A stretch of DNA of 64,000 bases from Malacoraja senta (taxonomy: Eukaryota), in contig CM075989.1 of the NCBI GenBank assembly GCA_038087875.1, positions 18,478,001-18,542,000 on the forward strand, in the 5' to 3' direction. Both the position numbers and the translations under genes were made by a program. The notes below the pieces were generated by a model. The model worked only from the letters and a program-made list of their open reading frames with translations, had not been told where the DNA came from and did not search any database. This document shows, in pieces, positions 32,701-62,781 of this stretch. Positions within the stretch are counted from its first letter, which is position 1. Each line of letters starts with the position of its first letter.

Positions 32701-34012
32701 ACCAGTTTAGTTTAGTTGGAGGGATATGGACCAAACACAGGCAAATGGGACTAGTGTAGCTGGGACATTGTTGGCCGATGTGGGCGAGTTGGGCCGAAGG
32801 GCCTGTTTCCACACTGTATCACTCTATGACTCTATGTCTCTCACACCCTGAGCAACCTGTGACTTCTCTGGCCAGAGATCCTCCTTTCAACCACATCCTG
32901 CTTCCACTGTGATGCAGTGGCCCATCTCCAAGAATTCAGGTTGTTGAATCCATTCTTGGATTCCTCTGTGGGTGACCTCCTTCATGAAAGGCTAAGTGCC
33001 GAGTAAAACAATGAGGAAAGGTCACATAATCATAAGGAATAGGAGTAGAATTAGGCCATTCGGCCCCTCAAGTCTACTCTGCCATTCAATCATGGCTGGT
33101 CTATCTCTCCCTCCTAACCCCGTTCTCCTGCCTTGTCCCGATAACCCCTGACACCCGTACTAATCAAGAATCTGTCTATCTCTGCCTTAAAAATATCCAC
33201 TGATTTGGACTCCACGGCCTTCTGTGGTAACGAATTCCACAGATTCACCACCCTCTGACTAAAGAAATTTCTCCTCATCTCCTTCCTAAAAGAACGTCCT
33301 TTAATTCTGAACGTGCGCTGAAAGGCACGATTGTTTGTTGTACGCTCAGTATTTAGAGAATAAAGAGGGTCCCAGCATGGGGGGGGAGGGGGGGGGGACA
33401 CACCGAGGGAACAAAGAGGGAACACTGGGGCAACATTGAACACTTTGCAACTTTTTGGCGTCCTATACCTAGCGACTCTTTGCATACTCTGTGCGTGACA
33501 TGCAAAACAAAGCATTTCACTTGACATGTCACATGTGACAATAACGTACCTTTCATTTGCTCCCTTCCCTTGAAAAACGGAACAAAACTCCATCAAATTT
33601 CACTGAGTCAACAGAAGCATCGAGACAGATTAAAGGATAATGACGATTAATTATTTCTAATGCATAATAAGCATAGCTAAAGCTTGGCACTTTGTCGAAT
33701 AATTATTGTAAGTATTCGAGCTATGAAGGAAAGTCTATTTTGTAATCAACGTAATCGACAAATGTAAATTAGATATACTTAACAAACTTCATTAATGGGT
33801 CGTCTCATTAAGACGAGCAATTAGATCTTTTTATTACACGCATACCATGCACTTCGGAAGTGAAATGTTCATTTCAGATCGCTGCTAATAGCCAGTGTGT
33901 AACTAACCTCTTATTTGTGCAGTAGATGTTTCCAGAGTGACATTTCATCCTGGCCTTAAATTACTTCATTCAAAACTGCGGAGGAATTGCATCAGAAGTC
34001 CCCACGTTGCCT

Positions 34013-34158
34013 TCTTCTTCTTCTTTCGTGTGGCGTGCACAGCCTAAAGTTGTTGGACAACTTGTTCTATTTGATCTTCCGTTTGTGCACGTCGAGTCGA
34101 TTGCATTAATCGAAACAGGGCGGACCACGTGAAGGTTGCAGTCTTCCACCCCCCCCCC
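34013..34158 (-). mobile_element. HDV-ribozyme-headed short retroposon, copy 1 (catalytic C mutated)
   Basis: 13-bp TSD CCCCACGTTGCCT (34000-34012, 34159-34171); (GAA)n tail; homologous to 44024-44164. Confidence 0.85.
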
Positions 34159-34223
34159 CCCCACGTTGCCTGAGAAAGCAGGACGTGGTTAATGTGGGGA
34201 ACTCAAGCTGAATGGGATCTCTA

Positions 34224-43351: not shown

Positions 43352-44023
43352 GTAGTGTTGCTTCCTTACAGGCCAGAGACCCAAGTTCAATGCTGACTAC
43401 GGGTGTTGTCTGTACGGAGCATGTACGTTCTCCCCATGACCTGCGTGGGTTTTCTATAAGATTTTCCATTTCCTCCCACACTACAAACACGTGCAGGTTT
43501 GTAGGCTGATCGGCTTGGTTTAAATTTAAATTGTCCCTCGTGTGTGTGTAGGATAGCGTGACTGTGCGGGGATCGCTGGTCGGTGCAGACTCGGTGGGTC
43601 GAAGGGCCTGTTTCCACGCTGTATCTCTAAACTAAACTACACGGTCAAAGATAATTAACTTTATTATACTCTGCCACACTAAAGAGCTTCCACAGTGCTA
43701 TTGGGCATAAAAGTCCACTTGAAAAACACTGAGTACTCCATCATAACACCTATAAAGGCAAACCACTGCCTTGCATTTCACATCTTTAATGCAAGGTGTC
43801 TCCTGTCAGTGATTGAGTTACTGGTGAAAGTGCAGGTTGAAAATAACAGGCAGGATCCTGGTCTTGGAGTCCTCCTTGCAATCCATCACATCGGTGCTTT
43901 GAATCCTTTTGTAATCAATTATTGCAATAATATATACAATACAATACAATACCAAACAAACCCACCACCATAATACAAAATCACCTAATTATCTAAACAA
44001 ATATTCTTATGTACTATTCTTAT

Positions 44024-44077
44024 GGGGTGGAAGATTGCAACCTTCACGTGGTCCACCCTGTTTCGACTAATGCAATC
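44024..44077 (+). ncRNA. Minimal HDV-like (CPEB3-type) self-cleaving ribozyme
   Basis: P1 GGGGUGG(44024-30)/CCACCCU(44053-59) with G1-U wobble; P2 GAUUGCA(44033-39)/UGCAAUC(44071-77); P3 ACC/GGU; L3 UUCACGU; GU after P1; P4 reduced to UUCGA; J4/2 CUAA with putative catalytic C44067. Confidence 0.85.
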
Positions 44078-44164
44078 AACTCGACATGCACAAACGGAAG
44101 ATCAAATAGAACAAGTTGTCCAACAACTTTAGGCTGTGCACGCCATACGCAAGAAGAAGAAGAA
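44024..44164 (+). mobile_element. HDV-ribozyme-headed short retroposon, copy 2 (possibly Ingi/Vingi-derived)
   Basis: Ends GCCATACGCAAGAAGAAGAAGAA; TATTCTTAT at 44015-44023 and 44170-44178; starts exactly at ribozyme G1. Confidence 0.82.
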
Positions 44165-44834
44165 TATATTATTCTTATATGCTTATAACTAAATACACTA
44201 TTATACAACTATATTACAATCCTTGTCAAGGATACATTCCACCCCTTGCGATGCCCAGCGTTCCCGGAAATCCCTCAGGGCGCCCGTGGACAGCGCGTTC
44301 TGCGTCCTTTTGCAGACCATCCAAAGGCAGATCTGTCGACGGGTTTACTAATGGGCTGGTGGGTGGAAGAGCTAATTAAGGATTCGTTGAAGGGAGCAGA
44401 GCAGGAGGTGAAGTGAGTCGAAAGCCCTGGTAATAAAACAGAAATATGAATCTCGTTACGGGGTGAAATTAGTAACCGTCTGACTTTCATGGCTGACGAC
44501 AAAAAGATCCGGAGAAAAGAAACAGTGGGGAATGTAAAAAGCCCAGTGTCGATCAACACCTCGACATGGAGCTTTACAGTTAAATCCTGACGGGGAGAAT
44601 GTTTCCAAACGACACTAAAGGAGGTTCACCAAGAGTGGTGGCTTTTCACACGAAGAACTTCGCATTTCATGTTCTCGCTGTTTGTCCAGGTGGAATTGTG
44701 GTGTAGATCAACTTGGCCACTTCTCCCCACTCAGTAAGTAAGGCTTTCCAGCTGCACCTTTAAACAAATGGTGCACCATCAAAATCAGTAGTTGAACTGA
44801 GTTTGACAGAGTTTTTTTTTTAACAGAGGCGACC

Positions 44835-59462: not shown

Positions 59463-62400
59463 AAACATAGACATAGAAAATAGGTGCAGGAGTAGGCCAT
59501 ATCGAGCCTGCACCGCCATTCAATATGATCATGGCTGATCATCCAACTCAGTATCCTGTACCTGCTTTCTCTCCATACCCCCTGATCCCTTTAGCCACAT
59601 CTAACTCCCTCTTAAATATAGCCAATGAACTGGCCTCAACTACATTCTGTGGCAGAGAATTCCAGAGATTCACCACTCTCTGTGTAAAAAATGTTTTTCT
59701 CATCTCAGTCCTAAAATATTTCCTCTTTATCCTTAAACTGTGACCCCTTGTTCTGGACTCCCCCAACATCGGGAACAATCTTCCTGCATCAAGCCTGTCC
59801 AACCCCTTAAGAATTTTGTAAGTTTCTATAAGATCCCCCCTCAGTCTTCTAAATTCTAGCAATTACAAGCCGAGTCTATCCAGTCTTTCTTCATATGAAA
59901 GTCCTGACATCCCAGGAATCAGTCTGGTGAACCTTCTCTGTACTCCCTCTATGGCAAGAATGTCCTTCCTCAGATTAGGAGACCAAAACTGTACGCAATA
60001 CTCCAGGTGTGGTCTCACCAAGACCCTGTACAACTGCAGTAGAACCTCCTTGCTCCTATACTCAAATCCTTTTGCTATGAATGCTAACATACCATTCACT
60101 TTCTTCACTGCCTGCTGCACCTGCATGCCCACTTTCAATGACTGGTGTACCATGACACCCAGGTCTCGTTGCATCTCCCCTTTTTCTAATCGGCCACCAT
60201 TCAGGTAATAGTCTACTTTCCTGTTTTGCCACCAAAGTGGATAACCTCACATTTATCCACATGATACTGCATCTGCCATGTATTTGCCCACTCACCCAGC
60301 CTATCCAAGTCATCTTGCAGCCTCCTAGCACCCTCCTCACAGCTAACACTGCCCCCCAGCTTCGTGTCATCCGCAAACTTGGAGATGTTGCATTCAATTC
60401 CCTCGTCCAGATCATTAATATATATTGTAAATAGCTGAGGTCCCAGCACTGACCCTTGCGGTACCCCACTAGTCACTGCCTGCCATTCTGAAAAGGACCC
60501 GTTTACTCCTACTCTTTGCTTCCTCTGCCAGCCAGTTCTCTATCCACATCAATACTGAACCCCCAATACCGTGTGCTTTAAGTTTGTATATTAATCTCTT
60601 ATGTGGGACCTTGTCAAAAGCCTTCTGAAAGTCCAGATATAACACATCCACTGGTTCTCCCTTATCCACTCTACTAGTTACATCCTCGAAAAATTCTATA
60701 AGATTCGTCAGACATCATTTACCTTTCATAAATCCATGCTGACTTTGTCCAATGATTTCACCATTTTCCAAATGTGTTGCTATCCCATCTTTAATAACTG
60801 ACTCTAGCAGTTTCCCCACTACCGACGTTAGACTAACTGGTCTGTAATTCCCCGTTTTCTCTCTCCCTCCCTTTTTAAAATGTGGGGTTACATTAGCTAC
60901 CCTCCAATCATCAGGAACTACTCCAGAATCTAAAGAGTTTTGAAAAATTATCACTAATGCATCCACTATTTCTGGGGCTACTTCCTTAAGTACTCTGGGA
61001 TGCAGCCTATCTGGCCCTAGGGATTTATCGGTCTTTAATCCATTCAATTTACCTAACACCACTTCCTGGCTAACCTGGATTTCCCTCAGTTCCTCCATCT
61101 CCTTTGACCCCTGCTATTTCCAGCAGATTAATTAAGTCTTCCTTAGTGAAGACAGAACCAAAGTAGTTATTCAATTGGTCTGCCATGTCCTTGTTCCCCA
61201 TGATCAGTTCACCTGTTTCTAACTGCAAGGGACCTACATTTGTTTTAACTAATCTTTTTCTCTTGACATATCTATAAAAACTTTTGCAGTCAGTTTTTAT
61301 GTTCCCTGCCAGTTTTCTTTCATAATCTATTTTCCCTTTCCTAATTATACCCTTTGTCCTCCTCTGCTGGACTCTGAATTTCTCCCAGTCCTCTGGTAGG
61401 CTGCTTTTTCTGGCTAATTTGTATGCTTCATCTTTTGTTTTGATACTATCCCTGATTTCTCTTGTTATCCACGGATGCACTACCTTCCCTGATTTATTCT
61501 TTTGCCAAACTGGGATGAACAATTGTTGTAGTTCATCCATGCAGCCTTTAAATGCCTTCCATTGCATATCCTCCGTCAACCCTTTAAGAATCAATTGCCA
61601 GTCAATCTTGGCCAATTCACGTCTCATACTCTCAAAGTTACCTTTCTTTAAGTTCAGAACCCTTGTTTCTGAATTAATTATGTCACTCTCCATCCTAATG
61701 AAGAACTCAACCAAAGTATGGTCACTCTTGCCCAAGGGGCCATGCACAACAAGCCTGCTAACTAACCCTTCCTCATTACTCAATACCCAGTCTAGAATAG
61801 CCTGCTCTCTCGTTGGTTCCTCTACATGTTGATTTAGAAAACTATTCCGCATACATTCCAAGAAATCCTCTTCCTCAGCACCCCAGCCAATTTGATTCAC
61901 CCAATCTATATGTAGATTGAAGTCACCCATTATAACTGTTTTACCTTTGTTGCACGCATTTCTAATTTCCTGTTTGATGCCATCCCCAACTCCACTACTA
62001 CTGTTAGGTGGCCTGTACAAAACTCCCACTAGCGTTTTCTGCCCCTTAGTGTTTCGCAGCTCTACCCATATCGATTCCACATCCTCCAAGCTAATGTCCT
62101 TCCTTTCTATTGCGTTAATCTCCTCTCTAACCAGCAACGCTACCCCACCTCCTTTTCCTTTCTGTCTATCCCTCCTGAATATTGACTATCCCTGGATGTT
62201 CAGCTCCCAGCCTTGGTTACCCTGAAGCCATGTCTCTGTGAACCCAACTATATCATAGTCATTAATAGCTATCTGCACATTCAACTCATCTACCTTATTA
62301 TGAATGCTCCTTGCATTGAGACACAAAGCCTTCAGGCTTGTTTTTACAACACTCTTACCCCTTATACAATTATGTTGAAAAATGGCCATTTTTGATTTTT

Positions 62401-62781
62401 GCCCTGGATTTGTCTGCCTACCACTTATACTTTTCACCTTACTACCTATAGGTTCTACCCTTATTTTACACCCCTCTGTCTCTCTGCTCACACATTTAAG
62501 AAACCCACCACCTCTTATTCTCTGTTTATTATCTTTTTCTTCTTTCCCACCTACATGTTGGGTGCTTCCCTTCTCTGCCTCCTGCCTCACACCCTGTCTA
62601 CTAGCTTTCTCTATTTGAATCCCTCCCCCCAACCGTTCTAGTTTAAAGTCTCCCCAGTAGCCTTTGCAAATCTCCCCACCAGGATATTTTTCCCCCATCG
62701 GTTTCAAGTGCAACCCGTCCTTTTTGTACAGGTCACACCTTCCCCAAAAGAGGTCCCAATGATCCAGGAACTGGAATCCCT
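59463..62781 (-). mobile_element. CR1/HER1-type LINE, ~3.3 kb, 5'-truncated: end of ORF1 (SGNH esterase) plus frameshifted ORF2 (APE endonuclease and RT)
   Basis: ORF1 tail [95 protein letters not shown]; 3' UTR with (TCTATG)-type tail. Confidence 0.97.

Follow-up and report, generated by a model that had tools for sequence, protein, structure and literature searches.

A 141-bp retroposon from both ends of a LINE, likely of the Vingi clade, carries a predicted minimal HDV-like ribozyme whose catalytic base has changed in an otherwise ordinary copy

The window examined here (the whole stretch of DNA analysed, 64,000 nt) contains a minus-strand element of 141 bp at 34152-34012 (Table 1), in which every base named in an earlier note on this DNA is present. 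A second copy (44024-44164) is 95% identical over 141 nt, and no third copy of the 141-bp element was found in the 64,000-nt window. The element at 34012-34152 had been described as a separate retrotransposition and this description holds, as it possesses its own exact 13-bp duplication, the first A of which (34012) doubles as part of the (GAA)n tail, and has flanks unlike those of the second copy. The latter is bounded by a 9-bp target duplication at 44015-44023 and 44170-44178, and because the two window copies have neither flanks nor target duplications in common they represent separate insertions. The 34152-34012 copy differs from the majority sequence of its subfamily by three changes in 132 sites, the subfamily mean being 2.3%, and one of these, a private A to G just beyond the ribozyme, is at 34097. 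The copy itself is unremarkable, being an ordinary and slightly decayed member of a high-copy family. At 61073-62779 (minus strand) and 1215-2050 the window also holds pieces of a different LINE, which include an endonuclease-like frame, together with an extended microsatellite array of TACA type.

Table 1. Positions of the element, its parts and its neighbour copy in the 64,000-nt window (ribozyme parts in element nucleotides)
Feature	Position	Strand	Basis
Target-site duplication, 5' copy, 13 bp, last four bases G	34159..34171	-	exact match to 34000-34012
Six extra G between duplication and G1	34153..34158	-	within 14-G run
Predicted HDV-like ribozyme, P4-less, 54 nt	34099..34152	-	descriptor parse and compensatory changes in related LINEs
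Predicted ribozyme helices	element nt: P1 1-7/30-36; P2 10-16/48-54; P3 17-19/27-29		descriptor parse
Predicted ribozyme, non-helical parts	element nt: J1/2, 2 nt; L3 20-26; G37; 6-nt linker; J4/2 44-47
Remainder of LINE-derived 5' segment, element nt 55-79	34074..34098	-	comparison with LINE 5' ends L144, L231-L247, L252
Junction piece, 13 nt, in place of ~2.95 kb of LINE	34061..34073	-	LINE comparison
3' end of the LINE: final five codons, stop (34046-34044), 3' UTR	34028..34060	-	matches ORF end and UTR in L048, L121-L150
(GAA)n tail, common to parent LINE	34012..34027	-	sequence
Target-site duplication, 3' copy, 13 bp	34000..34012	-	exact match to 34171-34159
Second window copy	44024..44164	+	fully paired helices, C at the catalytic site, A at element position 32

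The short element joins ~80 nt from the start of a 3.1-kb LINE of the same genome to ~50 nt from its end, with the middle deleted. The parent, which the earlier note had not named, was revealed by locus L048: the terminal 50 nt of the element correspond to the last codons of the LINE with its stop, 3' UTR and (GAA)n tail, and the 5' end of this LINE carries the same predicted ribozyme. The 13-nt junction piece appears to duplicate a short stretch of the neighbouring 5' sequence, an origin that we infer from the sequence. Near-full LINE copies span ~3.05 kb and their broken pieces encode an APE endonuclease, a reverse transcriptase (RT) and a C-terminal CCHC motif, with Pfam PF14529 and PF00078 detected on broken pieces of L252 and L152. 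No intact ORF was present in the five longest near-full copies read, and two C-terminal LINE pieces gave no match to RNase H at E up to 0.1. The 120 relatives listed, of 404, are mostly APE-RT proteins of ~1,000 aa, and RNase H is absent from the precomputed domains of these 120. Vingi, unlike Ingi, is described as having no RNase H domain in PMC13708176. Placed by ORF layout and domain content, the parent LINE likely belongs to the Vingi clade. The closest protein noted (P0001; 1,019 aa, encoded on a contig of 3,344 bp) shares 71% identity with the RT region of the LINE, far more than the next matches at ~50%. The short element has the make-up of a bipartite non-autonomous LINE, or SIDE, in that both ends come from one autonomous LINE and it has target duplications and the tail of its parent. 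It is not a SINE derived from tRNA, 7SL or 5S RNA: the head is the LINE's own 5' end, and Rfam gave no match in the window. We also observed that the LINE ORF has its first in-frame ATG inside the ribozyme (element nt 47-49, J4/2 to the P2 3' strand), and that the frame from this ATG is open into the endonuclease (L252:520-560, L253, L256).

The fold of the head was examined with our own descriptor for the HDV-like fold, applied to the first 54 nt, to the whole window and to metagenome loci. The 34152-34012 copy pairs at 7/7 positions in P1 (with G1 in a wobble), 6/7 in P2 and 3/3 in P3, in the nested double-pseudoknot order, and the second copy pairs at 7/7 in P2. Three descriptor matches were found across the window, namely both copies and a weaker parse that overlaps the second copy on the opposite strand, and an Rfam scan of the window gave no match at the gathering threshold. 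The P1.1 pair C22-G37, which the descriptor requires, is present; among young copies C22 is intact in 76/76 and G37 in 77/78. P4 is absent, there being only 6 nt between G37 and J4/2, as in the minimal HDV-like form.

Related LINEs provided a wider view of this head. From 80 metagenome loci collected, 34 and then 28 reaching the N-terminus were scanned. The strict descriptor detected heads in 3/34 loci, all of one element (L322 and two twins), and a looser descriptor in 3/28, including L275 and L276, with 0 on the reverse strand; four further heads were recognised by eye (L268, L270, L291 and L295). No head was seen in the remaining scanned loci, many of which lie on short contigs. The sequences of P1, P2 and P3 in the related heads differ from those of this family yet still pair (compensatory changes in L322, L275 and L276), J4/2 starts with C in 7/7 metagenome loci where a head was seen, and the P4 region, where parsed, measures 17-34 nt as compared with 6 nt in the family of this genome. 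Heads of related LINEs (L322:3117-3189; supplement of PMC5786205) look very similar to the mammalian CPEB3 ribozyme. The compensatory changes in related LINEs support an HDV-like fold for the family head, and the 5' end of Vingi-2_Gav, as given in the supplement of PMC5786205, shows the same ribozyme layout. Counting against the predicted activity is the length of J1/2, only 2-3 nt; spacers of 0-1 nt are reported in PMC4908430 nearly to abolish activity in engineered HDV-like ribozymes.

From two copies within 10 kb the earlier note had suspected a high-copy family, a suspicion confirmed by a census of exact matches to a 22-nt core pattern in the 1.94-Gb genome, which to judge by its repeats is probably that of a cartilaginous fish. 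This census, whose counts are lower bounds, yielded 1,552 matches with C and 57 with another base at the catalytic position, and the reversed control gave 0. The LINE-type 5' UTR has 112 matches, and amongst 30 of these loci that were read, 25 were short elements with three further junction types, four were inverted LINE copies and one was a direct long copy. At least four deletion junctions have been separately amplified. The three further short families (L347-L376) derive from the same LINE, have 5' parts ending near nt 89, 91 and 96 and keep the whole ribozyme. One allele is present in 15 copies at ~12-kb spacing (G000:C364), reflecting an element within a tandem segmental array.

Two features of the helices that the earlier note had remarked upon have a history in the family. 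The P1 3' strand reads CCGCCCT, with G at 34121 (element position 32) where the second copy has A. The U-G wobble was correctly described and does keep the pairing, but it is not a change of this copy, being the majority state of the younger subfamilies (S1 98/107, S2 15/19). The parent LINE has A at this position in 16/16 copies and the older short groups in 44/45 (24/25, 9/9, 8/8 and 3/3), these sets including loci chosen for likeness to the 34152-34012 copy. The counts indicate that the wobble arose once in a source element and that the 34152-34012 copy inherited it. Private compensatory evidence for the fold was thus rejected, as the wobble is inherited, one-sided and weak evidence by itself. 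The G at position 32 creates a CpG; reversions to A occur, 4/73 copies carry another base, and the A of the second copy may be either ancestral or reverted. The single P2 mismatch that had been claimed was found at 34141. It is not private to this copy, for the same mismatch has 41 matches genome-wide, mostly in a branch of S2; 23 of the 30 loci read belong to this branch and four to the young subfamily. The S2 branch (L377-L404) combines J4/2 CGAA with the P2 mismatch and has been amplified to a few dozen copies, and source elements have therefore tolerated one broken pair.

J4/2 reads TTAA, with T at 34109 in place of the predicted catalytic C (position 44), so that the proposed UUAA with a C-to-U change was borne out base for base. 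This allele is predicted to be inactive because C-to-U at the catalytic position inactivates HDV-like ribozymes in published work (PMC10879173). The earlier note had named a family consensus of U as the observation that would speak against a role in mobility; genome-wide the majority is C, which is kept in 1,552/1,609 core matches and replaced in 57 (40 T, 13 A, 4 G). The resulting loss of 3.5% lies between the values for two non-catalytic control C's of the same pattern, 30/1,582 (1.9%) and 85/1,637 (5.2%, or 71/1,623, 4.4%, with the 15-copy array counted once), and the change in the 34152-34012 copy is therefore read as neutral decay. We also used a sample picked by the 3' end only (the first 100 of 906 matches, 97 after dropping three duplicates), in which non-CpG C/G departures from the majority number 35/1,744 in the ribozyme versus 26/1,247 outside it. 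In the same sample the catalytic C departs from the majority in 2/77 S1 and 2/14 S2 copies, as assigned by our own rule, under which two S2-like copies fell into S1. The catalytic C of S2 lies in a CpG. Against strict neutrality, the loss of 3.5% exceeds the non-CpG rate of 2.0% in the young subfamily S1 (p = 0.003), an excess that we attribute to older copies and site-to-site spread with the support of only two control sites. C is the majority at position 44 in 7/7 groups (the LINE, S0, S1, S2 and three other deletion-junction families). We read 40 loci without C (39 from the 57 non-C matches, plus L010); these are spread over all subfamilies and junction types and include two pairs of duplicated loci, and no catalytically dead, U-bearing subfamily was seen amongst them. 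Conservation in sources combined with neutral decay of copies is what a head required for mobility predicts, although the amplified S2 branch with its P2 mismatch speaks against a strict requirement.

The 5' ends of the family are precise. Of 199 loci surveyed, 158 were full and distinct, 19 were duplicates and 22 were partial or misaligned. A target duplication of 9-15 bp (mode 11-12) was recoverable in 130/158 full copies, 140/158 begin with GGGG, and the duplication abuts G1 without an extra base in 104/130, which led us to reject a family-wide addition of G at the 5' end.

We consider it probable (about 0.85) that the element is an ordinary copy of a 141-bp retroposon made from both ends of a LINE of 3.1 kb that likely belongs to the Vingi clade, and that the changed catalytic base and the extra G residues likely reflect neutral mutation and slippage of a G run after insertion. 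By analogy with R2 SIDEs and NARTc, the 5' HDV-like ribozyme would cleave a read-through transcript immediately upstream of G1 to give a unit-length RNA. The LINE protein would recognise the 3' end that the element has kept, together with its (GAA)n tail, and the RNA would be copied into a staggered nick by target-primed reverse transcription, creating the 9-15-bp duplication. If new families were seeded only by copies with a working head, source elements would keep the catalytic C for this reason while inserted copies decay neutrally.

How the G run arose bears on this reading. The run at 34162-34149 comprises 14 nt, four from the duplication, six extra and four from the element. Extra G residues occur in 4/4 copies whose duplication ends with at least three G (+6, +7, +1, +1) and in 5/126 copies with other duplication ends (+1 or +2), a difference with p = 1.1e-5 in a test that rests on four copies. 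This tracking of extra G with GGG-ending target duplications suggests slippage within the G run, and the simplest reading is that insertion created a run of eight G which slipped afterwards. The six extra residues noted earlier are thus present, but non-templated addition, one of the origins then suggested, is unlikely given that most copies have no extra base and that G runs track G-ending targets. The alternative that they were added at insertion, through non-templated addition or stutter of the RT on G1-G4, or are a homopolymer assembly error, seems doubtful to us. Small additions do occur, as the one or two extra G in copies with non-GGG targets demonstrate; G-G microhomology would also favour stutter during 5' joining, and one locus (L004), where the end of the duplication is unclear, has eight G preceding the element. 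Set against this, runs of 6-7 extra G are restricted to duplications ending in GGG or GGGG (L001, L192), and long G runs are common in the window away from the element, with eight other G/C runs of 9-18 nt.

Two further alternatives concern the head. Host selection for ribozyme inactivation at this locus, for example because of cutting of a pre-mRNA, might be suggested by the position in the ribozyme of two of the three changes counted as private to this copy and by the somewhat more frequent loss of the catalytic C than the young-subfamily average. We regard it as very improbable since the mutation rate is the same in the ribozyme as in the body of the element, the catalytic C is lost less often than one of the control C's, and a simple ORF scan identified no host exon. 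Less improbable, but still unlikely, is that the head matters as a fold or an internal promoter and not as a catalyst, the C being conserved through the youth of the family or another role. The L1Tc head is described in PMC4035085 as both promoter and ribozyme, so that exact 5' ends need not mean cleavage; in an R2 system the fold itself raises insertion efficiency (PMC11331408), and a branch with the P2 mismatch was amplified. Against this stand the retention of C in seven groups of this genome and in distant LINE heads in which all helices have changed in sequence, and the lack of a U-bearing subfamily among the 40 non-C loci read.

Many copies of the parent LINE have an unusual structure, in which the extreme 5' end (starting within nt 72-478) is inverted and joined to a distant 3' fragment, usually between the two halves of a single target duplication (L048, L145, L146, L151, L152, L231, L235, L241, L246, L262-L266 and L368). 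A sample picked by the 5' UTR contained 20 distinct loci (21 found, one a duplicate), of which 10 comprise an inverted 5' piece and a 3' fragment with 0.7-2.8 kb missing, two are classical twin-primed inversions, four are direct and four are lone 5' fragments. Amongst 29 loci picked by the 3' end, excluding the query, there were five inverted-5' middle-deleted copies, two classical inversions and one direct deletion. A script check showed that 7/12 inverted-type loci are flanked by a duplication of 10-12 bp in which no more than one base differs, and such a duplication is visible by eye at three or four more. The inverted pieces mostly have their start in the initial 500 nt of the LINE, and those longer than ~110 nt cannot derive from the RNA of the short elements. 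As in twin-primed L1 insertions described in PMC4245944, these products of the parent LINE have an inverted 5' piece and a forward 3' piece within one target duplication; they differ from those insertions in that the inverted pieces come mostly from the first 500 nt and the middle 0.7-2.8 kb is missing. The same study describes inversions in human cells as occurring almost only with L1. Among the papers listed by literature searches, none dealt with 5'-inverted, middle-deleted Vingi products. Tentatively, the LINE protein might keep both RNA ends where it inserts, so that the 5' end with its ribozyme head sits by the second nick; this nick would often prime, or the first cDNA jump, near the head, and the P4-less ribozyme would serve as both cutter and handle. 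We rate this model as possible rather than probable, but if true this geometry would explain the inverted 5' ends with a missing middle, the repeated origin of tiny two-ended elements and the near-perfect completeness of 5' ends.

Bipartite derivatives have already been described for Vingi, Ingi, RTE and R2 (PMC5786205, PMC4494074). Like the Vingi-1_EE derivatives, RIME (from Ingi), NARTc (from L1Tc) and Bov-A (Kojima 2018, PMC5786205), the present family retains only the 5' and 3' ends of its parent, without an ORF; it also resembles the bipartite elements there described in having no tRNA-type head, in being mobilised in trans and in having several independent deletion junctions, and differs from them in being very short, at 141 bp. 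It shares with Drosophila R2 SIDEs (PMC3414825) and the Pr77 head of L1Tc/NARTc (PMC4035085) a 5' HDV-like ribozyme joined to the 3' end of the parent, precise 5' junctions and loss of function in some copies. Unlike those systems it is dispersed and not rDNA-specific, has an APE-type parent and carries a predicted head of 54 nt without P4. The double-pseudoknot core, absence of P4 and catalytic C as the first base of J4/2 are those of the minimal HDV-like or theta ribozymes, nearly 99% of which are in phages, often beside tRNAs, according to PMC10879173; here, unlike in phages, the predicted ribozyme heads an animal retroposon with more than 1,600 copies. Among the papers listed by literature searches, none describes a Vingi ribozyme or this short family, and none is relevant to Vingi in cartilaginous fish.

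The 34152-34012 copy is of interest mainly as a negative control provided by nature. The family, by contrast, supplies more than 1,600 dated alleles of a predicted ribozyme of 54 nt whose form has been reported mostly in phages, and its source elements, which are conserved, are cleanly set apart from its copies, which decay neutrally. Since Vingi proteins are under development for gene insertion (PMC13708176), a 5' head that cuts itself and a tendency towards 5'-inverted, middle-deleted products would matter both for the design of donors and for the by-products to be expected.
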